Positions 11,502 through 25,157 of a stretch of DNA of 64,000 bases are shown here, piece by piece. The first letter of the stretch is position 1. Each line of letters begins with the position of its first letter. The DNA is from Anaerolineae bacterium (lineage in GTDB: Bacteria; Chloroflexota; Anaerolineae; UBA1429). Below the pieces are notes generated by a model. The model was not told where the DNA came from and did no database searches. It saw only the letters and a program-made list of their open reading frames with translations. The position numbers were made by a program, and so were the translations under genes. The stretch is from the NCBI GenBank assembly GCA_963675785.1, contig OY776562.1:640001-704000 (forward strand). The letters are read 5' to 3'.

Positions 11502-12791
11502 TTACAGAATAGACTCACAGGGAGGTTCTTCTGATTGATTTTCAGTTGCATAGGCTCCGCGGGGTGTTTTGAACTGAAACCAGAATAGGATGCCACCAAC
11601 GGTAGAAGCAATGGCCCCCGTCGCGAAAACGGCTCCATAGCTGATCGATGTTGCCAGATATCCGCCGCCAAACGAGACGATCGCATTGCCCACATTAGAA
11701 GCTGCTGTAGTAATACCCGAAAGGAACTGCCGCCATTCCGCCCCCAGTATCTCCTGAATGAACACAATGTAGGCCGGCCGAGCGATTTGCCCTGCGGCGT
11801 TGACAATGAGAAACCCCAAGCCTGCTCCCAGCTCTGAATGTGTAAAAGCCATAACCACCAACCCTACACCTACACCGATAGCCCCCCAACTGACGGTGGG
11901 CACCAATCCCTTCTTTTCGCAGATGCGCGGCGTCATCAGTGCGGCAGGTGCAGCCAAAAGTTGGCCTATGGCGGTGATAACGCCGATGGTGGACGTAGGC
12001 GTATGTAGAACAGTATCTAGATAGACGTTCAGGAAGGTTCGTGCGGCGTTTTCGCCTGCCAAACGCAAGATGGAGACAACTGCCATGCCTGCGATGATAT
12101 TGCGCGCACCAATGGGGAGCACTTTGGGATTTATTGCATCCTTGGTAGATAGCTCACCAATGTCTTGGGTCTTGGCCATGAGGAATAGGGCAGGGATATA
12201 GAGAATTGCTCCTGCAACCAAAGCCCAGCGATAGGGACCTGCGTTATCAACTGTAGTGCTCATCAAGCTGGCAAACAGCGCCGGCAGCCAGCCGCCTATA
12301 AGACTTCCTATGAAACCGCCAAAGGGTGTAAGAGCTGCGTTTAGACTAAATGCCTGCTGTCGCTGTTTTGTTGGTGTTGTAACGGTAAGAAGAGGATGAA
12401 AATTAGGGAAATAAATCCCCGTTGCAATGCCAGAGAGCATGCGCATCAAGATGAACCACCAAGCAGATAATCCCCCCATGAGTTCCCCTAGGGGGAATAG
12501 CAGCGAGCTGATCAGCATCAGGTACATGCTTAGCATCACAACGCGTTTCATGCTGTATCGCCTGGATAGTTTATCTACGCTGAGGCTGGCCCCTATCACG
12601 GCAATCTGGGTCAATCCCGTTAGGATCCCTATGAAGCGCGCGTCATAGCCCAATCGAAGGAGGTACAGGTTCATCAGCACCGACCAGATGCCCCCCCCAA
12701 TGGTGATGACACGTAGGGCGCTTGTGCCCAAGAGTCTAAAAGAGGATTTATCCAGGCGATAATCAAGTGAATTTACAGGCCCTTGTTCCAT
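11502..12791 (-). CDS. MFS transporter
   Basis: About 12 TM segments; NLYLLRLGY..FIG; DKLSRRYSMK loop motif. Confidence 0.88.
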   Translation of the reverse strand: MEQGPVNSLDYRLDKSSFRLLGTSALRVITIGGGIWSVLMNLYLLRLGYDARFIGILTGLTQIAVIGASLSVDKLSRRYSMKRVVMLSMYLMLISSLLFPLGELMGGLSAWWFILMRMLSGIATGIYFPNFHPLLTVTTPTKQRQQAFSLNAALTPFGGFIGSLIGGWLPALFASLMSTTVDNAGPYRWALVAGAILYIPALFLMAKTQDIGELSTKDAINPKVLPIGARNIIAGMAVVSILRLAGENAARTFLNVYLDTVLHTPTSTIGVITAIGQLLAAPAALMTPRICEKKGLVPTVSWGAIGVGVGLVVMAFTHSELGAGLGFLIVNAAGQIARPAYIVFIQEILGAEWRQFLSGITTAASNVGNAIVSFGGGYLATSISYGAVFATGAIASTVGGILFWFQFKTPRGAYATENQSEEPPCESIL

Positions 12792-12905
12792 TATTACCTC
12801 AATTGGCTTACATTTATCTGTCTAGTCATGAGATAGATTCTACCCGCGTAAACAGCCTAGTACAATCCGCACAGAGGGGAACACATGATTACTGTGCTCT
12901 ATACC

Positions 12906-12934
12906 TTGGCAGATTGTTCAAAATCGGTTATAAT
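12906..12934 (+). promoter_or_regulatory. Sigma70-type promoter of the ABC operon
   Basis: TTGGCA-17 nt-TATAAT. Confidence 0.65.
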
Positions 12935-12960
12935 ACCCTTTATAGTTTGCACCTGTGCAA

Positions 12961-13118
12961 CTCTCGCTGGGTCAATGACGATCTGGTTCATGTCCCCGAC
13001 AACCCTGGGGACGGGCGAAGCCGCCCACTTCTGTTCTATAGTCAGGAAGGGGGACAGCCAGACGGTCATGATGTTTCCTGATGGTTTCAGTCGAAGCAAT
13101 CAAGTTGATCCAGGAGAG
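12961..13118 (+). promoter_or_regulatory. Structured 5' leader, candidate cis-regulatory RNA
   Basis: Nested stems; the outer stem pairs with the RBS region (CTCTC-G-CTGGGTCAA with TTGATCCAG-GAGAG). Confidence 0.5.
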
Positions 13119-13123
13119 AAATA

Positions 13124-14839
13124 GTGAAAAAGACATTTGCACTTGTCGTTAGCTTGCTGGTCATTGCAAGCATGGTGCTGTCGGGCTGTTCGCAGCCCAC
13201 TGCCACCCCCGCTCCCACATCTGCCCCAGATCCGACGGCTACTACGGCCGCTGCGACCGCCGAGCCCGAAGCCACGGCAGTGTCGGAAGTTACTACTGAG
13301 CCAGAAGCTACCACAGAGGTCGTATCTGAACTTTTGTGGACTCCTGAGCTCTTGCAGGCTTTCTCTGCCGCAATTGACCGCGAAGAGCTGGTCGATCGCG
13401 TTTTTGAAGGCCGTAACACCCCGGCCTATTCCATGGTCCCCGAAGACTATCCGTATGCGACCGAGCCCTTCTTGGATGCCTACGGCGAGCGTGACCTGGA
13501 TTTGGCCATTGAGCTGTTGACAGACGCCGGTTACACGGCCGATGCCCCGCTCGAGATTGAGCTTTGGTACCCGCCCGAGCACTATGGCACCACCACTGCT
13601 GATGTGATGCAGGTCCTCAAAGAGCAGCTCGAAGAGACCGGTCTGATCCTGATTGACCTCTCGAGCCAGAACTGGGCTTCTTACGTCGATGCCTTTGTGG
13701 CCGGCGAAATGCCCGTGTTTATGCTTGGTTGGTTCCCCGATTTCGCAGACCCCGACAACTGGCTGACTCCGTTTGCCTCTTGCCTCCAGTCTCCGGATAA
13801 CGGTGTGAACTTTTGCGACGAGGAAATGGACGCTTTGTTGAACGCTGCTGCTTCTTCTTCGGATGCAGCCGAGCGTGAAGAGCTATATCAGCAGATCGGC
13901 GACCTCTATGCTGAACTAGTTCCTACACTTCCGCTGTTCTGGGAATCCGAGTATGTGACCTACCGTGACGGCGTTGAAGGTGTTGATATCGGCTCAACCT
14001 TTGAGTTCAACTATAACGTCCTGAGCTTTGCCGAGGACGCCATCCCCGCTTCCGGCAGCACAGATACCATCATCATCGGCACCACCGATGAGGTGCACAG
14101 CCTGGATGCAAACGATGCCTACGCCACCCATGACTGGGAAATCATCAAGAACACGGGTCGCCCCTTGTTGACCTATGCTCCTGGCGAGACTGAGCTCATC
14201 CCAGGTTTGGCTGAGGCCCTGCCCGAAGTGAGTGATGATGGCCTCACCTATACCTTTAAACTACGCGAAGGTCTGACCTTTGCCGATGGCACGCCCATCA
14301 CCGCTGATTCCTTTGTATACTCTTGGGATCGTCTCAACTCCCTCGAAGGCGAAGTCTCCGGTTTGGTGCAGGTTTACGTCGAAAGCGTCGAGGCTGTGGA
14401 TGACCTGACGGTGGCTTATCATCTCACCGGCACCTACGGTTTCTTCTCAGCATTGGCTGCAACTGCGCCGTTCGTTCCTGTAAACCCCAACACCTTCCCG
14501 GCTGACGAACTCGTTGGTTATCCTGAGACCATTGAGGGCTGTGGTCCGTACGTTATGACCTCCTTGGTTGCTGGTGAGCAGATGGTGCTTGAGGCGAACC
14601 CCGAGTACTTTGGCGACGATGCTGCCTTGATCCCCAACGTCATCATTCGTTACTATGCTGATCCGACGACCATGGCCAACGCTGTGGAAAGCGGCGAGAT
14701 CGACGTTGCCTGGCGTACGCTTGGCCCCGTTGAGGCAGTCCGCCTCTCTGAGGTCGAGGGTTTGAACGTGATTACGGTTGAAGCACCTTCGCTCCGTTAC
14801 CTTGTGTTCAACCATACGTACACTGTGCCTGCTGAATAG
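13124..14839 (+). CDS. Peptide/nickel ABC substrate-binding lipoprotein (family 5), circularly permuted
   Basis: Lipobox LSGC; QAFSAAIDREE half precedes the TIIIG..SLD..SDDGLTYTFKLREG..F.DG half. Confidence 0.9.
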   Translation: MKKTFALVVSLLVIASMVLSGCSQPTATPAPTSAPDPTATTAAATAEPEATAVSEVTTEPEATTEVVSELLWTPELLQAFSAAIDREELVDRVFEGRNTPAYSMVPEDYPYATEPFLDAYGERDLDLAIELLTDAGYTADAPLEIELWYPPEHYGTTTADVMQVLKEQLEETGLILIDLSSQNWASYVDAFVAGEMPVFMLGWFPDFADPDNWLTPFASCLQSPDNGVNFCDEEMDALLNAAASSSDAAEREELYQQIGDLYAELVPTLPLFWESEYVTYRDGVEGVDIGSTFEFNYNVLSFAEDAIPASGSTDTIIIGTTDEVHSLDANDAYATHDWEIIKNTGRPLLTYAPGETELIPGLAEALPEVSDDGLTYTFKLREGLTFADGTPITADSFVYSWDRLNSLEGEVSGLVQVYVESVEAVDDLTVAYHLTGTYGFFSALAATAPFVPVNPNTFPADELVGYPETIEGCGPYVMTSLVAGEQMVLEANPEYFGDDAALIPNVIIRYYADPTTMANAVESGEIDVAWRTLGPVEAVRLSEVEGLNVITVEAPSLRYLVFNHTYTVPAE

Positions 14840-14875
14840 CGGTTACCTTACCGCACCATTCACTGTTAGGACGTG

Positions 14876-14899
14876 GGGGGCGGTCGTAAGACTGCCCCC
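14876..14899 (+). other. Intra-operon stem-loop after the binding-protein gene
   Basis: GGGGGCGGTC-gtaa-GACTGCCCCC with no U-tail; probable mRNA stabiliser. Confidence 0.55.
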
Positions 14900-14925
14900 T
14901 TGCGTTATGGACTGGAGTTCCTTCT

Positions 14926-15948
14926 ATGTCGGCTTCTCTACGCAAGTTTCTGGTTGTGCGCATCCTTTTAACGATTCCTATGGTGATCATTCTGATCACA
15001 ATGGTCTTTTTTATCATGCGCGTGTTGCCAGGAGACCCTATACGTTCACAGCTTGGTCCCAAGGTATCAGAAGAGCAAGCAGAGGCGATGCGTGAACGCT
15101 TGGGCCTCAATAGGCCTTTATATGAGCAGTACTTTGATTTTCTTTGGGACACGATCCGGCTTGATTTTGGGACAGCGCTGACTTCAGGAGAGCGTCCCAT
15201 TGCGGATGAACTCGCTGAGCGGCTGCCCGCCACCATTGAACTGACTATTCCGGCCATGCTAATTACGGGTATTGCAGGCATAGGCCTTGGAGCATACGCA
15301 GCCAAGCACCGTAAACAGCCACAGGATTACATCATCCGTGCGGGAAGCATCGTTGTATATGCTATCCCCGTATTCTTTATGGGCTTGCTTTTTCAGATTT
15401 TGTTCGCGGTAAGAATCCCCATCCTGCCTCTTTCTGGGCGAATGGATACCATGATCCTCACTTCGTTCGAGTCAGTAACCGGCTTTTATGTCATCGATTC
15501 CATTATCACCGGAAACTGGCCCGCACTTTGGTCCGCCATCACCCATTTGATTATGCCCTCTGTAACGCTCAGTCTTGCTTTGACGGGGGTGTTTATTCGC
15601 CTAACGCGAGTAAACATGCTCGAAATGCTTCAGCAAGATTTCGTTACGGCTGGTCGTGCGCGTGGTATCCCCGAAAGACGCCTGGTGTACAAACACGCTC
15701 TGCGTAACACACTCATCCCCATTCTGACCATGTTTGGCATGCAGTTTGCTATTCTGCTTGCGGGTGCCACCCTTACAGAGACTACTTTTTCCTGGCCGGG
15801 CATTGGTCGTTATTTGGTTGAGAGAATCGAATTGCGTGACTATACCGCGGTTCAGGCTACGATCGCCGTCTTTGCTATGTTTGTTGCACTCATCAGTTTG
15901 TTAATGGATGTGGTCAACGCGTTCGTGGATCCCAGAATTCGCTACTAA
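14926..15948 (+). CDS. dppB: Peptide ABC transporter permease (DppB/OppB family)
   Basis: LPGDP, RLPATIEL, TAGRARG..Y.HALRN, ETTFSWPGIG, DPRIRY. Confidence 0.93.
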   Translation: MSASLRKFLVVRILLTIPMVIILITMVFFIMRVLPGDPIRSQLGPKVSEEQAEAMRERLGLNRPLYEQYFDFLWDTIRLDFGTALTSGERPIADELAERLPATIELTIPAMLITGIAGIGLGAYAAKHRKQPQDYIIRAGSIVVYAIPVFFMGLLFQILFAVRIPILPLSGRMDTMILTSFESVTGFYVIDSIITGNWPALWSAITHLIMPSVTLSLALTGVFIRLTRVNMLEMLQQDFVTAGRARGIPERRLVYKHALRNTLIPILTMFGMQFAILLAGATLTETTFSWPGIGRYLVERIELRDYTAVQATIAVFAMFVALISLLMDVVNAFVDPRIRY

Positions 15949-15968
15949 GTTGGAATGGATGGCAGAAG

Positions 15969-17222
15969 ATGAACCAGAAAAATAAAGATGCTGCATCTGT
16001 TCCCGAGTGGCAGCAAGATCTCGATAAAGTTGGTTTTGTACGCAAGCTGTTTATGGCTCGCAAGTGGTATGGTGGCGATTGGTGGTTTGTCGCCATTAGC
16101 GCCGTGTTGCTGTTCGGCGTTATTTTGCTAGGTGTCTTCCCCCAATGGTTCGCTCCATATGACCCCCGTGAAGAGGTTGGTGCTTCGCTCATGGCCCCCG
16201 GGCAGGAATCAGAGACATATGTTCTGGTGGTGCCGGAGGATTCCGAAGCCGAGTCTTTACGGGATGTAGGGCTCCGCGAGAATGCTCTGGGTTACACCAT
16301 GGGTACTCCAGCTAGCCAGTCGTTGCGCGATGCGCTGGATACCGCTACGGACGAAGACCAGGCCGCTGGTTTGGATGTTCGTTATCAGCCGCGCAAGACG
16401 CGTTATGAGACGCTCGAAGAGGGACTGGCTGCCTTGGAGGTGGGCGAGTTGGATGGCTATATCGTTTCCAACATCGTCTTTGAAGAGGTTGCAGATAACT
16501 ATTCGGGGTTACGCATTGTTGGCTCTATTAGCGATGTAGAAACGCCCCATTTTGTCTTGGGCACCAATCAGCTAGGCCAAGATGTTCTCAGTCGCACGAT
16601 CTGGGGTACCCGTATCGCATTGATCGTGGGACTTTGTTCGGCACTGGCCTCCATCGTTATTGGCGTGCCATTGGGGCTTGTCAGTGGCTTTGTCGGTGGT
16701 TGGGTGGATCGGGTACTGACTTTGGTGATGGATAGCCTTTATTCTTTCCCGGGGCTCATTCTGGCCATCGCTATCGCGGCTGTCCTTGGTTCAGGTATTG
16801 GCAACATCATTGTGGCTATCTCTGTGGTCTATGTGCCCACTTATTTCAGGGTTGTTCGCGGGCAAACGTTGTCTGTAAAAGAGGAACTCTATGTCGAGGC
16901 TGCTAAAAGTCTTGGCGCCACCTCTCGCGAGGTGCTCTGGAAGTATGTGTTCCCTAACGTTATCCCCTCCGTCGTCATCATCTTTAGCGTCAACGTGGCG
17001 GATGCGATACTTACAGAGGCAGGCCTGAGCTTCCTGGGATTCGGGTTACCCCCTGATGTTCCCGATTGGGGCATCGATCTGGCTCGTGGACAGGACTATA
17101 TTCGCCGGGCTTGGTGGCTTATTACAATACCTGGCGCCATGGTTAGCCTGGTGACACTCTCGTTCAGCATGCTCGGAGAAAGCCTCTCAGAGATTCTGAA
17201 CCCAAGATTGGCGGAGATTTAG
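15969..17222 (+). CDS. dppC: Peptide ABC transporter permease (DppC/OppC family) with a ~115 aa extracytoplasmic insertion
   Basis: APYDP..., LGTNQLGQDVLSR, YVEAAKSLGA (EAA loop), EAGLSFLG.G.PP..PDWG. Confidence 0.92.
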   Translation: MNQKNKDAASVPEWQQDLDKVGFVRKLFMARKWYGGDWWFVAISAVLLFGVILLGVFPQWFAPYDPREEVGASLMAPGQESETYVLVVPEDSEAESLRDVGLRENALGYTMGTPASQSLRDALDTATDEDQAAGLDVRYQPRKTRYETLEEGLAALEVGELDGYIVSNIVFEEVADNYSGLRIVGSISDVETPHFVLGTNQLGQDVLSRTIWGTRIALIVGLCSALASIVIGVPLGLVSGFVGGWVDRVLTLVMDSLYSFPGLILAIAIAAVLGSGIGNIIVAISVVYVPTYFRVVRGQTLSVKEELYVEAAKSLGATSREVLWKYVFPNVIPSVVIIFSVNVADAILTEAGLSFLGFGLPPDVPDWGIDLARGQDYIRRAWWLITIPGAMVSLVTLSFSMLGESLSEILNPRLAEI

Positions 17223-17225
17223 GCA

Positions 17226-18227
17226 ATGGCATCAGTCGTTACAGATACGTTGCCCCTTGTGCAGTTGCGCGATCTTTCCGTAACCTATCACACCCGTTTA
17301 GGCTCGGTGAGCGCCGTGGATGGTGTCTCTTTTGATATCCATCGCGGCGAGATTCTTGGCCTTGTGGGTGAAAGCGGTTGCGGCAAGAGCACTATGGGCA
17401 AGGCAATAATGCGCATGATCATGCCACCGGGAGAAATTTCGAGCGGCGAGATCGTCTTTGATGGTCAAGATATTATGCTCTACAACGACGACCAGATGCG
17501 TGATTTTCGTGGTCGACGTATGAGCATGATCTTTCAAGATCCCATGACTTCACTCAACCCCGTACAGCGCATCGATGAGCACCTTGTTGAGGCTTTACAG
17601 GTACATGAACCCAAAACGCCGCGCGAAGCGGCTTTGGAACGTGCTCGTGTGCTCGCAGAGCGTCTTGGTATTCGCCGTGACCGCTTGCAGAGTTATCCAC
17701 ATCAATTGTCGGGTGGCATGCGACAGCGTGTGATGGTTTCTTTGGGGTTGCTGCTGAACGCTTCTTTGGTAGTGGCTGATGAAGCGACGACTTCTCTCGA
17801 TGTGATCGTCGAGGCCAAGCTGATCGATGAATTAGTCCGCCTACGAGATGAGTTTGGTATCTCCATCCTCATGATTACCCATAATATCGCGTTGGTGGCA
17901 GAGGCGGCGGATCGTGTTGCTGTGATGTATGCCGGACGCGTGGTTGAGGTGGGCGGCGTGTACGAGGTGTTTGATACACCGCTCCATCCTTATACGAGCG
18001 GCCTGCTCTCTTCGGTCCCCAGCATTGCGCTGGATGACACCGAGGAGCTTTACAAAATGCCTGGTGAACCTCCCAATCTTACACATCCTCCTATGGGGTG
18101 CCGATTCCATCCGCGCTGCCCCAAGGCGTTACCGATCTGTTCTCAAAAGGCCCCAACACTGTTGGATCAGGGTGGTGGACATCTGGTGAACTGCTGGCTG
18201 TATCAATCGATCGAGCAGGAGGGCTAG
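17226..18227 (+). CDS. dppD: Peptide ABC transporter ATP-binding protein
   Basis: [31 protein letters not shown]-terminal GCRFHPRCP. Confidence 0.93.
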
Positions 18228-18229
18228 CA

Positions 18230-19240
18230 ATGACAGTGGATGTTCAAACGGCCACCGTTGACAATCTCGTCGAGGTTGATAACCTTCGGGTCTGGTTCCC
18301 AGTTCAGCATGGGATTTTTGAGACGCTCGTATCCGGGCACAAAGACTATGTACATGCTGTGGACGATGTCAGTTTTGATATTCGGCGCGGCGAGGTGTTC
18401 GGCCTGGCGGGCGAGAGTGGCAGTGGCAAAAGCACCACGGGTCGCGCCATCATTCGTCTTCTTGATCCAACGGCGGGCAAAATTAGCTTTGACGGGATTG
18501 ACATGCAGACGCTCTCTGCTGAAGAGCTGCGGCATCTGCGGCGCCGTATGCAAGTGATTTTTCAGGACCCCATGGCCTCGCTAAACCCACGCATGTCTCT
18601 TGGTGCATCAATAGCCCACCCGCTCCAAATACATTTTCCCGAGCAAAAGGCCAGGCACCATGAGATGGCCAGCGAAATGATGGAACACGTCGGATTATCG
18701 CCTTCTCGTTTTTACTATGACAAGTACCCCCACCAGATATCGGGTGGGCAGCGTCAAAGGGTAGTCATCGCCCGTGCGCTTATCACACACCCCGATCTGG
18801 TTATTGCTGATGAACCCATCGCTATGGCTGATGTAAGCGTGCGCGCCCTACTGCTCGACTTGATGATAAAGCTCAAGCAAGAGCTCAACCTCACGTATCT
18901 ATTCATTACCCATGACCTGGCAACGGCCAAATATATCTGTGACCGGTTGGGTGTCATGTATTTGGGCAAGATGTGTGAGATGGGGAACCTAAAAGATGTG
19001 TACGGTGAACCCCTACACCCGTATACGCGGGCATTGTTGGCTGCTGTGCCGGTTCCTGATCCCCATCGACGCCGCACGGAGGCCATGCCAGAGGGTGAGA
19101 TTCCCAACGCAATTCATCCACCAAAGGGTTGCAGATATCATCCACGCTGCCCGCTGGCACAGCCTATCTGTTCGCAGCAGGATCCAGAGTTGCGTGAGCT
19201 GCGCCCCGGCCATTTTGTGGCTTGCCATTTGGCGCGCTAG
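18230..19240 (+). CDS. dppF: Peptide ABC transporter ATP-binding protein
   Basis: GESGSGKS, YPHQISGGQRQR, GCRYHPRCP..VACH; start MTVDV after AGGAGG. Confidence 0.93.
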   Translation: MTVDVQTATVDNLVEVDNLRVWFPVQHGIFETLVSGHKDYVHAVDDVSFDIRRGEVFGLAGESGSGKSTTGRAIIRLLDPTAGKISFDGIDMQTLSAEELRHLRRRMQVIFQDPMASLNPRMSLGASIAHPLQIHFPEQKARHHEMASEMMEHVGLSPSRFYYDKYPHQISGGQRQRVVIARALITHPDLVIADEPIAMADVSVRALLLDLMIKLKQELNLTYLFITHDLATAKYICDRLGVMYLGKMCEMGNLKDVYGEPLHPYTRALLAAVPVPDPHRRRTEAMPEGEIPNAIHPPKGCRYHPRCPLAQPICSQQDPELRELRPGHFVACHLAR

Positions 19241-19399
19241 GGATGGTTTTGAAAAAAAGCCCACTCGTAAAAAAGTTGCAAGAGAAAAAAGAAGGCGTAA
19301 CGCCTGCGCCGATTCGGGGTTGTCAATAACGAACGCGCTGGACGGGGGATGGGCTCCCTGAATAGCAAACTCTACGACGAGTGCATTGTCTTTCTCCTC

Positions 19400-19459
19400 A
19401 GACAGAGGCCGCGTCTCTCGAGGGATCTTTCCCTAGAGAGAGCGGCCTCTGTCTCTTTG
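19400..19459. terminator. Long hairpin between convergent dppF and slyD
   Basis: AGACAGAGGCCGC...GCGGCCTCTGTCT (13 bp) with inner TCTCT/AGAGA and AGGGA/TCCCT stems. Confidence 0.7.
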
Positions 19460-19469
19460 TAGATTTGAC

Positions 19470-19901
19470 CTAGTCGAGAATTTCTAACAGTTCAATGTCA
19501 AAATTCAAACGCTTGCCTGCGAGATGATGGTTCGCATCAATATCGACATGTGTATCTGAGACACTGTGAACAGTAACGGGGATAGGTTGCCCCATGGCTG
19601 TTTGCATCATCAATTGTTGGCCAATTTCTGGTGAAAGGGTGGGGGGCAGCTGCTTGCGGTCGACCTTTACTATACGGTTTTCGTCCCACTCGCCATAGCC
19701 GTCGGCGGGTTCGATGATAACCGAACGTTCATCGCCAACATTCATGCCAGTTACGCCTATGTCAAAACCCTTGATTACTTGGCCGCTTCCGATTTGAAAC
19801 TCAAAGGGGCCTCGGTCTCGCGATGAGTCTATTTGGGTTCCATCATCTAGCGTCAGGGTGTAATGCACTCGAACGCGGTCGCCATCTTTCGCTGTCGTCA
19901 T
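19470..19901 (-). CDS. slyD: FKBP-type peptidyl-prolyl cis-trans isomerase (SlyD-like, no His-rich tail)
   Basis: VRVHYTL..DG...DSS, GQVIKGF, DANHHLAGKRLNFDIE. Confidence 0.9.
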   Translation of the reverse strand: MTTAKDGDRVRVHYTLTLDDGTQIDSSRDRGPFEFQIGSGQVIKGFDIGVTGMNVGDERSVIIEPADGYGEWDENRIVKVDRKQLPPTLSPEIGQQLMMQTAMGQPIPVTVHSVSDTHVDIDANHHLAGKRLNFDIELLEILD

Positions 19902-20527: not shown

Positions 20528-20566
20528 AAAACAGGGGCCGCGCACATCGTGCGCGGCCCCTGTTTT
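20528..20566. terminator. Bidirectional intrinsic terminator
   Basis: Perfect 18 bp inverted repeat AAAACAGGGGCCGCGCAC-atc-GTGCGCGGCCCCTGTTTT. Confidence 0.9.
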
Positions 20567-23500
20567 AATTGTAGATGAGGGGAAAGCGCATTCTGGGGGG
20601 TAACGCGCTGCTAGTGAGTGTGACGCTCCGTTCTTGAGTTGGAGCGAGTGATGACTGAATCGTAAGTGTGCATGTATCAGTATCGCGCCAGTCTGCTGTT
20701 GCAGGTACGCTCACACTTACACGAATGATCGTCGATTCACCGGGGGATAGAGGCCCCACCAATGAAGGTGCTGTTACCGACCAGGTGTTTCCGGCAATTG
20801 AGATGACATAATAATCGCTCGATTGCCCTGTATTCGTTAATAAAATACTATGAACGGCTGTCTCGCGGACATAGCCTTCTGCGCTATTGGTGCTAGCGCT
20901 ATTAAAGCTGATACTGCCAGTTGTAGAGGCTACCGTCATGGTGATAGGAACCCACACCTGCGGCTGTAAAGGATCGTTGGTATTGATCGCAATAGCTGCA
21001 TGATAGGTACCGATTCCCTCTGTCGCAGTGGCATCGAGGGTGAGCGTGACAGTAGCTTCTTCGCCGGGGGCAACCACGCCCGATGTCGGGCTAGCACTGA
21101 GCCAATCGCTGTTACTGTCGAAGGCCCCCACATAACAGCGCTCCACCGTACTATAGATAGTTTGTCCATCGGCGCTTTGCCCACCGATGGCATAGAAATA
21201 ACCGTCGCCAGCGATTGCCCCTTCGAGATACCCCCTGGCCTGGTTCAAAGTTGGTAACGTGGGAGACACCGTCCATGTATTGCTCTCCACAGAGTACAAG
21301 GCCATGTCGTCTGACTCTCCCAGACTGCTGCTTCTGGGGCCGCCGGCAAGCCACAGGCCATCTACACCGACCCCATCAGCCATATAGCTCCAACGGGTAA
21401 GGGTGCTGCTATCGCTGGGCACCGAGGCGCCATAGCTCCATGAGGAACCATTCCATAGTTCTGTAGTGAGCAGCGGTGCCAAGCTGGAGATGATTCCGGT
21501 GACGCCACCGGCTGCAACAAGTGTGTCATCCACCCAACCTGCTGCAAAACCCAAGCGAACGGCAGTCATACTGGAACTTTGAGCCCAGATTCCTGTTGTG
21601 GTGTCCAGTATCCATACTTCATTAGTCAGGCTAGAGCCATCCAAACCACCGAGCACATAGACGTTGCTTCCTTTTACGGCGGTGGCATACTCCCATCGCG
21701 CACTGTAACCATTGTTCGCCGTAACGATTGTCCAGACATTCTGAAACGTATCATACACACAGGTTGTACCCGAGTCGGCATCTCCGGGGATGTAGATATG
21801 CCCGGCAATAACGGCAGCATCTGCTCCGTCAAGGGTGATCGGTGCGGATCCCAACTCTGTCCACGCATTGCTGGCGATATCATAGCAATACGTGGTGTTG
21901 GTCTTTTCTCCTGCTGCATTGCTACCACCGATCACATAGACCTTTTGGCCCACGGCGGCGATGGCGGGGCGTGTTCGTCCCTCGGGCAGGGAGGCCACGA
22001 CTTGCCAGGAATCGCCAGTTTCGGCAATAGTGTTCCCTATTACTTGCGCCTCGGCTGAGGAGAGCGTTTCAATAGCCGCCAGAACATCTTCGGAGAGCGG
22101 CTCAGTCAATCGCTCCGTCCGTATGCCGGTACTGGCCAGGCCGTTGCTGCCCAGATCTTGCTCGACGATCTCGTATTCAAGGTTAGTGGTCCCCTCATTG
22201 GCGATGCGCAGGGGATAGGTGAGTTGCTGGGATGTTGCGACCACGGCAGTGTAGCTGGTGGCGGTAATGACTGCCCGCGGCGCGCCCAACACAAAGTTGA
22301 CCTCTTGCGTAGTACCAGTGCTCATGTAGATGGACGAACTAGCGGTGTCATAATAAGGTGACGTAGCCTGGATGGTGGCGCAGCCTGTAGGGGTGAACAA
22401 GGTGTAAAAGCCATCATCTATATTCACGTCTGCCGTAGCGGCGGTTACCGTCAGGTAACCGCTCAGGTTACTGACTTTGGCATCGGCTAGGGGGGCGTCG
22501 GTGTCGATCGCGTACACTTGGCCCACCACCAAACCACCGCTGGTGCGCTTACAGGCCGAATCTCCAGCAAAGACGTGCACATCGTCGATCTGCCAGTACC
22601 AGTCATCATTGGCCCCATAATAGTGAAAACGCACCATCACCTGCGGTTGACCTGCAGCGATGCTGGAAATGTCGATTTCCTGAGCGTTGGGGCCGAGCAC
22701 ATCCTGCCCTTGAAGGCGATAGACGTTGATCCATGTGTATCCATTGTTGATGCTTACATCTACGTCAGCAATTTCGGTTTGCAAGTGCCTGAAGGATTGT
22801 TTGAAGGAGAGTGTTACCTTGCTGGTGCTGCTCATGTCATAGACGGGGCTGCGCAAGATAGTGTTGATGGTCGTGGCACCAGCATAGTCACTGTCGATGA
22901 TGGCAAAGCCACCCGTACCACCCGTTTCGTTATCCCGCTCACCTGGATCATCAAAACGCCAGGTGGCGCCAGTACCGGTTGAGATCCAATTAGAGGGCAG
23001 CGTTGTGCTGTCAAAAGTCTCAACGGTATCTTTGAACGAGGTTCCGGGCGCAGTGCACTCAGCGCAGGGGTAAAGGCCATAGGTGACCATGGAATCGGCG
23101 CTGGGCGCAGTAAAGCTGGTCGAGTAGGTGCGGTATCCGTCTACATAGGCTTCTATCTGGAAATCACACTCGGCCTGCTCCGGAATGTCAACGGCAAAGG
23201 TTCCCTCTACGGGGTCAGTCCAAACGATGTCCGACTGTACAGTACCCTCTTGATCTGTGAACTGGTAGGTAACACGTGTATAAAGTGGCCAGCTTGTCTC
23301 TGCATCAATAATTTTTCCTGAAAGGGTATAGGTTTCCAGTGGATCAAGCAGGAAGTTGAGCGTTTCGCTGGCGCCAGCGCCAATGGTTAGCGGATAGGAG
23401 ATGCTTTCGTAGCCATAAGCAGAAAGCGAAAGGGTGTAGGTCCCCGGCCAAATGGCTAGCGTGTAATTACCGGATGAATTCGTGCGTGCGGAAATGTCAT

Positions 23501-25157
23501 AGTTATCGTTGGTGGCCTGTATTTTGGCCTGCGAGATGGGAGCCCCTGTGGTCTGGTCGGTGATCTGGCCCTGCAATGTGGAATCGCCGCAATAGTCCCG
23601 AGCGGCCTCTACGGCGGCGGCGGCATCGATCTCACCCCACCCTGTCGTGTTATTCGGGTATTGGCCGTCCGGGTAAGAAGAACAGGATGCGGGTAAGCCG
23701 TTGGTTACGGCGTTTGCCGTCTGCTCCAAGAGATTCTCAGTGGTGGCGTAATCCCCAATCAAACAAGGGGCTGCCTGCCACATCAACGCGATGAGTCCGG
23801 ACACGTGTGGTGCTGCCATGGAGGTGCCGGTCAAAGAACGTAGCGAGGTATCGTTTAGATAGCTGGCTGAAAGAATGCTCGTACCCGGCGCGACCACCTG
23901 TGGCTTGAGATATGGATACCCCGATGGATTGACCGTATCAGCTTGGTCGCTGGGGCCTCGCACAGAGTAGGTAGCATAGATGCTACCGGTCTTGCTGGTG
24001 GCCCCTACGGCGGTCACGTTGCCATAGCGCGCTGGGTTCCCCACCGTCTCGCAGGCCTGGGTTGTGGTCGAAGAGCCATTGCCAGCCGAAAACACAGGGT
24101 AGATGCCGGCAGCCTGCCAGCTATCTATAGCATTTTGGAACCAATCGTCATAACTGCGCACAGTACCATTGCCATCTCCCCAAGAGTTGTTGACGATGTT
24201 CGGTCTGAGGTCCGGGTCAGCATCGAGGCCATCGGTGGTAGTGGGCGCCAGGACGAATTCGGCACATTCCAGCAGATCGGCTTCTTCACAGGTGGTGCCA
24301 GTGCAGCCTTTGCAGCCAATCCATTCGGCACCAGTGGCCATACCAATGATGTCTGTATCGCTGCTGCCAACCATAATACCCATGGTGTGTGTACCGTGTC
24401 CCTGGGTATCGGTCGGTTCATCATAGCTGGTGGTGGTGGCGTCGTACCAGTCATAGTCATGATCAAAAACACCGTTGCCTTCGTTGCCGCGATAGTTATC
24501 GACGAGCGTTTGATGGGTATAGCGTACTCCCGTGTCAATATTGGCCACCACGATGCCGCTACCATCGATGCCTTGAGCCCATACTTCAGGAGCGTTTACC
24601 TCATCAAGGTTTGGCTGTACGGTGGCCGTGCTCGATGTACTGATGCTGTCTGCTTCTATTGCCTCTTCTTCTACCTCGGGGATGGTAGCGATGTGCTGCG
24701 GCTCGATGGATTCAATCTCGCCGTAACATAGCAGGCCGTCAAAGTTGGTCACACTCATCCCCTCGACATAAATCGAGTTATTGATCCAAAACGAAGTGTG
24801 CTCGGTTCCAGTTTGGATGAGGTATTTGATGAGGGTGCTTTGATCGGAAAGGGTTTGAGCGCAAAGTTGTTCATACACATACTCGCCCCTCTCGATCCAG
24901 TCCATTTCATAAGCGGCCGAGAGTTCGGCTGTATCACGCATATAAATCATAAAGGAGGGCGAATCGCCAGCGGATACCTCTGCATAGAGTTCAGCATCGA
25001 CGAGGATACCCGTATCGGTGAGGAGCATGGGTGTAGTGCCATCGTCCGCAAGCGTTTGCGCGACCACGGTGCCGTAGGTGTTGTTGCCAGAAATGACAAC
25101 ACACATGACGGCGATGATGACCAGGCCGATGATCAGACGTCGCAACGATGCCCGCAA
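20565..25157 (-). CDS. Secreted S8 subtilisin-like protease (bacillopeptidase F-like) with carboxypeptidase-regulatory-like, adhesin-like, Kelch and Ig-like domains
   Basis: Catalytic triad IDTG / HGTHTMG / GTSMAAPHV; Kelch repeats (VYVIGG, YVLGG, YAIGG); signal peptide; TTG start after GGGAGG. Confidence 0.92.
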   Translation of the reverse strand: MRASLRRLIIGLVIIAVMCVVISGNNTYGTVVAQTLADDGTTPMLLTDTGILVDAELYAEVSAGDSPSFMIYMRDTAELSAAYEMDWIERGEYVYEQLCAQTLSDQSTLIKYLIQTGTEHTSFWINNSIYVEGMSVTNFDGLLCYGEIESIEPQHIATIPEVEEEAIEADSISTSSTATVQPNLDEVNAPEVWAQGIDGSGIVVANIDTGVRYTHQTLVDNYRGNEGNGVFDHDYDWYDATTTSYDEPTDTQGHGTHTMGIMVGSSDTDIIGMATGAEWIGCKGCTGTTCEEADLLECAEFVLAPTTTDGLDADPDLRPNIVNNSWGDGNGTVRSYDDWFQNAIDSWQAAGIYPVFSAGNGSSTTTQACETVGNPARYGNVTAVGATSKTGSIYATYSVRGPSDQADTVNPSGYPYLKPQVVAPGTSILSASYLNDTSLRSLTGTSMAAPHVSGLIALMWQAAPCLIGDYATTENLLEQTANAVTNGLPASCSSYPDGQYPNNTTGWGEIDAAAAVEAARDYCGDSTLQGQITDQTTGAPISQAKIQATNDNYDISARTNSSGNYTLAIWPGTYTLSLSAYGYESISYPLTIGAGASETLNFLLDPLETYTLSGKIIDAETSWPLYTRVTYQFTDQEGTVQSDIVWTDPVEGTFAVDIPEQAECDFQIEAYVDGYRTYSTSFTAPSADSMVTYGLYPCAECTAPGTSFKDTVETFDSTTLPSNWISTGTGATWRFDDPGERDNETGGTGGFAIIDSDYAGATTINTILRSPVYDMSSTSKVTLSFKQSFRHLQTEIADVDVSINNGYTWINVYRLQGQDVLGPNAQEIDISSIAAGQPQVMVRFHYYGANDDWYWQIDDVHVFAGDSACKRTSGGLVVGQVYAIDTDAPLADAKVSNLSGYLTVTAATADVNIDDGFYTLFTPTGCATIQATSPYYDTASSSIYMSTGTTQEVNFVLGAPRAVITATSYTAVVATSQQLTYPLRIANEGTTNLEYEIVEQDLGSNGLASTGIRTERLTEPLSEDVLAAIETLSSAEAQVIGNTIAETGDSWQVVASLPEGRTRPAIAAVGQKVYVIGGSNAAGEKTNTTYCYDIASNAWTELGSAPITLDGADAAVIAGHIYIPGDADSGTTCVYDTFQNVWTIVTANNGYSARWEYATAVKGSNVYVLGGLDGSSLTNEVWILDTTTGIWAQSSSMTAVRLGFAAGWVDDTLVAAGGVTGIISSLAPLLTTELWNGSSWSYGASVPSDSSTLTRWSYMADGVGVDGLWLAGGPRSSSLGESDDMALYSVESNTWTVSPTLPTLNQARGYLEGAIAGDGYFYAIGGQSADGQTIYSTVERCYVGAFDSNSDWLSASPTSGVVAPGEEATVTLTLDATATEGIGTYHAAIAINTNDPLQPQVWVPITMTVASTTGSISFNSASTNSAEGYVRETAVHSILLTNTGQSSDYYVISIAGNTWSVTAPSLVGPLSPGESTIIRVSVSVPATADWRDTDTCTLTIQSSLAPTQERSVTLTSSALPPRMRFPLIYN

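Follow-up and report, generated by a model that had tools for sequence, protein, structure and literature searches.

A candidate Opp/Dpp-type importer of Anaerolineae with a circularly permuted binding protein and an added lobe in the DppC permease

The window analysed here is a 64,000-nucleotide stretch of DNA from an Anaerolineae bacterium (GenBank assembly GCA_963675785.1, contig OY776562.1, positions 640,001 to 704,000). Positions 12906-19240 of the window hold five genes that run in one direction on the + strand, as do all features described below unless stated otherwise, in the order SBP-DppB-DppC-DppD-DppF, where SBP denotes the substrate-binding protein. The SBP gene (13124-14839) encodes a lipoprotein of 571 aa that matches the Pfam family SBP_bac_5 (PF00496; E = 2.4e-75, 254 bits), with the match split into two stretches. 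It is followed by the genes for a DppB-type permease of 340 aa (14926-15948; BPD_transp_1, E = 5.3e-39, and BPD_transp_1_N, E = 2.1e-10) and a DppC-type permease of 417 aa (15969-17222; BPD_transp_1, E = 7.8e-29, over residues 232-414). The DppD-type ATPase (17226-18227) and the DppF-type ATPase (18230-19240) each match Pfam ABC_tran and the C-terminal domain oligo_HPY. For dppF, the ATG at position 18230 was taken as the start because AGGAGG precedes it by 8 nt; the listed open reading frame (ORF), from 18098, overlaps dppD. A first-pass annotation of this DNA had read the same five genes as one operon, and this was borne out.

Component models of NCBIfam for Opp, Dpp, Nik and Gsi systems all matched the operon proteins, far under their cut-offs. 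The DppB, Opp2B and NikB models matched DppB in this way, and the DppC/OppC-type models matched DppC from residue ~193 onward only. Since all of the equivalog models fell below cut-off, the kind of system is clear and exact orthology and substrate are not assigned. The gene content, an SBP, two BPD_transp_1 permeases and two oligo_HPY ATPases, indicates an Opp/Dpp-type (SBP_bac_5-dependent) type I ATP-binding cassette (ABC) importer.

The two halves of the SBP are swapped, with the counterpart of the canonical C-terminal half at residues 71-302 and that of the canonical N-terminal half at residues 314-571. Positions 1-209 of the SBP_bac_5 profile map to residues 357-565, and positions 317-510 of the NCBIfam OppA model map to residues 78-273. 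A phmmer search against PDB chains aligned residues 315-565 with residues 19-266 of a Listeria SBP (5isu) and residues 71-276 with residues 270-470 of the same chain; S. typhimurium OppA showed the same swapped pattern. The closest relative in canonical order that was found, the 544-aa SBP of locus L058, is 62-63% identical in both halves, such that residues 316-564 of the window SBP align with its residues 59-308 (62% identity) and residues 78-302 with its residues 320-543 (63%). These four comparisons upheld the permuted binding protein of the first-pass annotation, and indicated that the SBP is a natural circular permutant of a canonical cluster C protein.

From its start, the SBP gene encodes a signal peptide with a lipobox (LSGC, Cys22; 13124-13189), read from the sequence, and a tether rich in Pro, Thr, Ala and Glu (residues 23-70; 13190-13333), recognized by its composition and by a predicted local distance difference test score (pLDDT) below 50 for residues 23-64 in an AlphaFold2 model. 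The canonical C-terminal half, which comprises the C-lobe and the C-terminal segment (residues 71-302; 13334-14029), was placed by alignment to 5isu and L058. A join linker (residues 303-313; 14030-14062) was placed by comparison with the SBPs of L058 and L061 and has pLDDT values of 83-97 across the join. The canonical N-terminal half and the stop codon (residues 314-571; 14063-14839) were placed by alignment to L058 and by superposition of the model. Side-by-side reading against L058 and L061 further showed that the canonical hinge stretch is cut to give the new C-terminus and the new mature N-terminus, and that a linker of ~10 residues connects the old C-terminus with the old mature N-terminus. 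Two linker residues, P308 and G311, are invariant in 35 aligned SBPs, and A306, A309 and S310 are nearly so. The new ends sit at the first of two hinge crossings and map to canonical residues ~266-270.

The AlphaFold2 model of the SBP had a pLDDT of 82.3 and a predicted template modelling score (pTM) of 0.79, with disorder limited to residues 23-64 and a confident join. Residues 303-561 of the model superposed on residues ~1-290 of solved cluster C SBPs with ~240 residues aligned (Z ~23, rmsd ~2.3 Å), and ~50 solved SBPs among the matches listed gave Z scores of 21.5-23.4 and root-mean-square deviations (rmsd) of 2.0-3.0 Å. The structure aligners used here keep sequence order, and the half formed by residues 71-302 was therefore matched by sequence.

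The permuted order was present in 60 genomic loci besides the window. All 120 listed homologues (66-79% identity) covered 87-100% of the query in one local alignment, and those with source names were all Anaerolineae or Chloroflexota. Scanning a single genome for each species gave 67 loci, comprising 58 permuted SBPs, 8 canonical relatives and 1 chance match to the signal peptide; loci L060 and L042 come from one metagenome-assembled genome and are probably two ends of one gene. Isolates that carry the permuted SBP include Ornatilinea apprima, Pelolinea submarina, Longilinea arvoryzae and Anaerolinea thermolimosa. The lipobox and a strong Shine-Dalgarno (SD) sequence are kept in the permuted homologues examined. 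The 35 aligned permuted SBPs have a mean column identity of 71%, with many invariant columns in both halves and also near both new ends (W72; L557-N563). The window genome encodes 1 permuted SBP and ~9 canonical paralogues. An SBP match at E <= 1e-40 was found in 44 of 401 genomes sampled evenly across the class. Three of the 44 (the window genome, G452 and G583) had one colinear match, which denotes the permuted order, and almost all other matches were pairs in canonical order at 37-63% identity; 40 of these places were fetched (L087 is on the same contig as L058). A separate 1036-codon frame in G601 (L109:1172-4279, - strand, contig C30) has a lipoprotein-like signal and one SBP_bac_5 domain nested in another, in the order N-half, start of the C-half, an entire second copy and the remainder of the first C-half. 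This arrangement shows, by its sequence, an intragenic duplication within the same SBP subfamily.

Full-text literature, with most subscription journals outside the scope of the search, held no description of a permuted OppA, DppA or cluster C SBP, and none of an OppC/DppC periplasmic domain like the lobe described below. The sole natural precedent for a permuted binding protein found there is TpMglB-2 (Tp0684) of Treponema pallidum, for which the designation 'Type Ic / Cluster Bc' has been proposed (PMC4990184). TpMglB-2 is likewise a naturally circularly permuted, tethered lipoprotein and has retained ligand binding. It is a sugar-binding cluster B protein, whereas the window SBP has only SBP_bac_5/cluster C relatives and no MglB homology was found for it. 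In TpMglB-2 the chain is broken within the sheet of the N-lobe, which brings the hinge crossings to four, whereas the break in the window SBP removes one of two. Sequence similarity to canonical forms is low in the permuted part of TpMglB-2, whereas both halves of the window SBP are 62% identical to a canonical relative. The comparison suggests that the permuted SBP resembles TpMglB-2 in kind and is not a 'Cluster Bc' member.

The second departure from the usual plan lies in DppC, which has ~110-125 more residues between the first transmembrane segment (TM1) and the LGTNQLGQD motif than three paralogues of the same genome. The extra lobe in DppC that the first-pass annotation had noted was therefore confirmed, and it was modelled as a single binding-protein domain. 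This predicted periplasmic lobe occupies the TM1-TM2 loop (residues ~81-190; 16209-16538), as judged from an AlphaFold2 model, Foldseek, VIA-align and profile searches. The TM1-TM2 regions of DppB and DppC are described as periplasmic in the report on the E. coli DppABCDF structure (PMC12136057). A lobe model derived from an alignment of 34 lobes had mean pLDDT values of 89-95 in its core blocks (model residues 21-120). Foldseek with this model returned 228 PDB matches at E <= 1e-3, of which the top ones were amino-acid-binding proteins (E ~1e-6); the matches were 13-21% identical and aligned over about half of each amino-acid-binding protein. VIA-align gave Z scores of 13-14.7 overall, including 4ymx (Z 14.2, rmsd 1.4 Å) and the isolated domain 2 of T. 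maritima ArgBP (6gpm; Z 13.2, rmsd 1.9 Å, 90/92 residues). The lobe profile also matched an ancestral arginine binder, 4zv1, among PDB sequences (E = 8.9e-4, same region). Against Pfam, the lobe had no match to PF00497 (SBP_bac_3) and only weak matches to Phosphonate-bd (E = 0.052) and SBP_bac_11 (E = 0.0016), and a Pfam scan of five further lobe-bearing DppC proteins placed no domain over the lobe. The insert is one lobe long and the second lobe of a binding protein is not present. The 34-lobe alignment has conserved residues at the first turn from strand to helix and over a Pro-Arg-x-x-Arg stretch. From the model, the insert reads as a single domain 2 of the class II amino-acid-binding protein fold.

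The DppC lobe is rare, as judged from sequence searches. A profile search of 1.84 billion representatives found at least 54 proteins at E <= 0.001, mostly fragments, and a word-based search found at least 50, with all named ones from Anaerolineae. These counts are lower bounds. The profile was built mainly from the permuted clade, and the shorter lobes of distant operons may escape it. Aside from the class-wide check, the lobe profile matched 2 of 401 genomes in a phylum-wide sample, a figure that comes from few close relatives and a first-look filter that scored few candidates, and that was not used for prevalence. A divergent DppC of the same lineage (P0209, 477 aa) is extended at its N-terminus and has, at the site of the lobe, an insert that is longer and differs in part.

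The lobe shares its alpha/beta fold, over ~90-105 residues, and a weak profile similarity with domain 2 of class II (cluster F) binding proteins such as 6gpm and SBD1/SBD2 of GlnPQ. Unlike those proteins, it stands without domain 1, is inserted in the loop of an Opp-type permease and belongs to no Pfam family above threshold. In the GlnPQ type, a complete two-lobed domain is fused to the membrane domain, whereas DppC has one lobe of ~110 residues between TM1 and TM2. An elaborated periplasmic loop that contacts the SBP is known from the maltose importer, in the P2 loop of MalF. The scoop of E. coli DppB (PMC12136057) is likewise an elaborated periplasmic permease loop; the DppC lobe differs from these examples in the loop (P1), the subunit and the fold, and contact with the SBP has been seen for the scoop and is a proposal for the lobe. 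Like the window operon, the solved importers E. coli DppABCDF (PMC12136057) and M. tuberculosis DppABCD (PMC10954201) have a cluster C SBP, two six-helix BPD_transp_1 permeases and two ATPases with the oligo_HPY domain, and the SBP is a lipoprotein here as in M. tuberculosis. Unlike them, the window operon has an SBP with swapped halves and ends at the hinge, and a folded domain of ~110 residues in the first periplasmic loop of DppC. Canonical operons of Anaerolineae (L058 at 62% identity; L061-63 and L069-70 at ~45-50%) have the same DppB, DppC, DppD and DppF genes and an SBP homologous in both halves but in the usual order. Most of them carry the DppC lobe, and nine of a more distant branch have a short DppC.

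The distribution of the two traits was assessed across loci other than the window. Among the 60 loci with a permuted SBP, the DppC lobe was complete in 54 and cut by a contig end in 2, no DppC was short or unclear, and 4 had no DppC on the contig. The 46 loci with a canonical SBP (45 distinct) comprised 25 with a complete lobe, 1 with a lobe cut by a contig end, 9 with a short DppC, 1 unclear and 10 with no DppC on the contig, a number that counts L058 and L087 (one contig) twice; the only DppC of the L058 contig is an unrelated paralogue, and at L057-L059 the DppC of the operon lies beyond the contig. In a DppB tree of 63 rows, which left out rows with <250 aligned residues, a branch with SH-aLRT 98 set the 55 rows of permuted operons apart, and canonical L058, L061-63 and L065 fell outside. 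A DppC tree of 91 rows, with the insert columns removed and L024, L031, L065 and L099 left out for incomplete C-termini, likewise set the permuted rows apart by a single branch (SH-aLRT 94). The short DppC forms were nested among lobe-bearing rows, and the changes needed on this tree were one for the permutation and two for the insert, on different branches. These results indicated that the lobe is older than the permutation, which arose once on a lobe-bearing background, and that, provided the root on the paralogues is correct, the lobe has been lost two or more times. Whatever the root, the trees place the changes in permutation and lobe on different branches, so the two traits appear nested and not coupled.

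Taken together, these features suggest, with a probability that we put at roughly 60%, that the operon encodes an Opp/Dpp-type type I importer with a flytrap-competent permuted lipoprotein SBP, an older docking lobe in DppC and a peptide-like substrate. The permuted gene could have arisen by in-frame tandem duplication and fusion of a canonical SBP gene followed by loss of the outer halves, a route that would leave the end state seen in the SBP. Because the cleft and the lobes on either side of it are intact and highly conserved, the usual capture-and-deliver cycle is expected: the SBP would close on its ligand as a Venus flytrap and deliver it to DppBC, with DppD and DppF powering transport. 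In the structure of M. tuberculosis DppABCD (PMC10954201), the hinge face of the SBP sits on the translocator with hinge residues 259-282 in contact, and the lipidated N-terminus of the SBP runs along DppB to the membrane. Because the break maps to canonical residues ~266-270, in the same region, the permutation would move the lipid tether to the hinge, on the translocator-facing side, and leave one covalent hinge crossing. The scoop motif of E. coli DppB, which reaches into the cleft of the SBP, is borne by the corresponding loop (PMC12136057), and by its position the DppC lobe may offer the tethered SBP an additional surface for docking or guidance. Complex predictions of SBP residues 65-571 with the lobe scored 0.38, 0.01 and 0.04, against a mark of 0.32, and are neutral as to binding.

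Several points weigh against this reading. Ligand, expression and assembly are predicted from sequence and models, and the role of the lobe is proposed from its position and by analogy. Cutting one of two hinge crossings could alter or abolish closure, which lies beyond a static model. The duplication route is drawn from the end state, and no intermediate was found in this lineage. The trees that date the lobe were built by a 'quick' method and rooted on distant paralogues, with long-branch warnings on both. As to the substrate, the best NCBIfam matches of the SBP include nickel, glutathione and opine binders, all far under their cut-offs. A 1407-codon frame in G494 (L111:5069-9289, - strand, contig C84) holds a canonical SBP relative followed by beta-helix and weak glycoside-hydrolase-like matches, so that a non-peptide substrate is possible.

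That the importer takes non-peptides, such as oligosaccharides, opine-like compounds or metal chelates, is the alternative that survives best, with the rest of the proposal unchanged, and we regard it as rather unlikely. In addition to the glycoside-hydrolase-like regions of the L111 fusion, SBP_bac_5 proteins among the structural and sequence matches include NikA/NikZ, AccA and sialic-acid and chitin-oligosaccharide binders, and there is no conserved flanking gene that points to peptide use; neighbour genes gave no conserved clue to the substrate, the most widespread neighbour occurring in 12 loci. However, Asp206 of the SBP, invariant in 35 sequences, aligns with Asp419 of S. typhimurium OppA, which we take to bind the amino group of the peptide, and fusions to a protease or to amino-acid SBPs occur among relatives. 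One of these fusions, in G727 (L110:2414-6301, - strand, contig C16), has a Peptidase_C1 domain (papain family, E = 6e-43) directly before a canonical SBP relative, and a C-terminal extension of ~260 residues after the SBP part. The other, in G474 (L108:2-3289, - strand, contig C28), is a lipoprotein frame of Peripla_BP_6, SBP_bac_3 and a canonical SBP relative that runs off the contig start. The relatives in both fusions are at ~40% identity, and no signal peptide lies between the domains. On balance, this evidence favours a peptide-like substrate by a modest degree.

A different role for the lobe must also be considered, that of a ligand-handling element, either as a half site that would form a full pocket together with the SBP or a permease loop, or as an amino-acid sensor that gates transport. 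The fold of the lobe is that of domain 2 of amino-acid-binding proteins, its first strand-helix turn and Pro-Arg-x-x-Arg stretch are conserved, and full binding domains fused to permeases are known, with GlnPQ chains among the matches. However, only one of the two cleft-forming lobes is present, the identity to solved amino-acid binders is 13-21% with no Pfam SBP_bac_3 match, and the lobe was lost twice while the operon was kept, all of which make this role unlikely. Slightly less probable still is a three-part receptor, in which the permease lobe would engage the hinge-tethered SBP or its ligand at docking and share in hand-over or selection. If true, this would be a mode undescribed for type I ABC importers, in which the relocated ends of the SBP exploited a pre-existing lobe. 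The docking or guiding surface proposed above is the role that we prefer for the lobe.

The first-pass annotation had proposed that the permutation and the lobe co-evolved into a remodelled SBP-permease interface, giving a new transporter subtype, and had suggested that co-occurrence be profiled across genomes. Every permuted SBP with a readable DppC does have the lobe, which is ~18 residues longer in the permuted clade than in more distant canonical operons. However, co-occurrence with the lobe rests on one event, as the permutation has a single origin. The lobe also accompanies canonical SBPs, in 25 operons that are complete and 1 that is partial, nine canonical operons have a short DppC, and the canonical sister operons L061-63 and L069-70 already have the longer form of the lobe with the conserved Pro-Arg-x-x-Arg. 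With the two traits changing on separate branches of the DppC tree, co-evolution is improbable and this part of the annotation was not supported. The same applies to the D-loop variant of DppF and the SD occlusion (both described below), which had been counted as parts of a joint remodelling: the former occurs in all three canonical sister operons that were read, and the latter is not common to orthologous leaders. As for the claim of an undescribed architecture, what stands is that neither the permuted SBP nor the lobe was found in print in the literature searched; what does not is a single new system, as the data point to two novelties of separate origin on a known Opp/Dpp importer.

Recent horizontal transfer of the operon was considered, as none of the 15 other genomes of the window's own family had an SBP match at E <= 1e-40; however, the GC content of the operon (0.537) equals that of the genome (0.536), and the presence of the operon is patchy with no compositional sign of recent transfer. 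The chance that misassembly or pseudogene decay explains the permuted gene is close to negligible, since contigs of two runs of one study (P2) do break at 14125-14154 inside the SBP gene but overlap there by 30 bases, as expected of a graph branch, contigs of runs X1 and X6 (both of study P1; X1 is possibly the source of the window DNA) bridge the join, the same order recurs in 120/120 listed proteins and 60 other loci from many independent assemblies including isolates, and the gene has an open frame, a lipobox, a strong SD and many invariant columns. The apparent graph branch at 14125-14154 perhaps reflects a word common to a related gene in the same sample.

The binding proteins of ABC importers are textbook hinge-bending receptors and widely used biosensor scaffolds. 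In the permuted SBP, one hinge strand of two appears to have been cut naturally and the old ends rejoined, with canonical relatives at 62% identity, and a permuted/canonical pair would test what the hinge strand and the position of the tether contribute to closure and docking. The permease lobe appears to be a single lobe of a different binding-protein class recruited into a membrane subunit, which bears on how importers gain accessory periplasmic parts. Both the permuted SBP and the lobe occur in cultured and harmless Anaerolineae, and bench study is therefore feasible.

The Walker A, signature and Walker B motifs are intact in DppD and DppF. The D-loop of DppF reads DEPIAMAD (residues 194-201; 18809-18832), as the first-pass annotation had it, with Ala-Met-Ala-Asp in place of the Ser-Ala-Leu-Asp of the window genome's own paralogues (DEPxSALD); the terminal Asp is retained. 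DEP[I/V]AMAD was found in the DppF of 48/49 permuted operons and of 3/3 canonical sister operons (L061-63). Its presence in those sisters argues that the variant is older than the permutation, and it is best read from these sequences as a trait of the lineage. In DppD, the corresponding stretch is DEATTSLD in 49/51 permuted operons vs DEPTTSLD in 3/3 canonical ones. Both ATPases end with four Cys in the arrangement C-x5-C-x6-C-x17-C (DppD 292, 298, 305 and 323; DppF 301, 307, 314 and 332). The [4Fe-4S] ligands of E. coli DppD have the same spacing, and those of E. coli DppF differ by a last gap of x16 (PMC12136057).

Upstream of the SBP gene lies a promoter-like site, TTGGCA-17-TATAAT (12906-12934), that matches 11/12 consensus positions in a scan that was not enriched overall over shuffles (6 sites found vs 5.8 expected). 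The three orthologous loci nearest to that of the window (L002, L003 and L020) also have a -35/-10 pair in the equivalent position. With the transcript start inferred from this site, the gene has a long 5' leader (12941-13123), and a leader of ~150-185 nt seems common to the nearest loci, to which the leader sequence is 38-41% identical. A frame of 104 open codons (12767-13081) spans the leader. The predicted fold of 12906-13140 has an energy of -82.5 kcal/mol (z = -3.63), and none of 200 shuffles was as stable. In this fold, an anti-SD (12961-12973) pairs with the SD stretch (13107-13118), giving an SD-paired probability of 1.0. Among 150 strong-SD genes of the same genome the median of this probability was 0.69, with values >=0.95 in 6% and >=0.99 in 2.7%, and the pairing in the window is thus unusual but not extreme. 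It is the highest of 53 leaders, the 52 orthologous ones spanning 0.08-0.97. The ribosome-binding-site-occluding leader of the first-pass annotation is therefore predicted for the window but is not conserved among orthologous leaders, and it is treated as a local feature of a predicted fold. Rfam covariance models gave no match at E <= 1 across 12500-19600, a result that leaves room for an undescribed family.

A GC-rich hairpin (14875-14899), seen by reading the sequence and absent from the terminator-scan list, falls within the 86 nt that separate the SBP gene from dppB and could reduce read-through into the permease genes. The operon is flanked upstream by a major facilitator superfamily gene on the opposite strand (11502-12791) and just downstream by an ORF of 1530 aa (20565-25157, - strand). 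Elsewhere in the same genome, outside the window, an ORF of 1167 aa (C1:1857270-1860773, - strand) is DppC-like at residues 337-670 and may encode a fused or extended permease.

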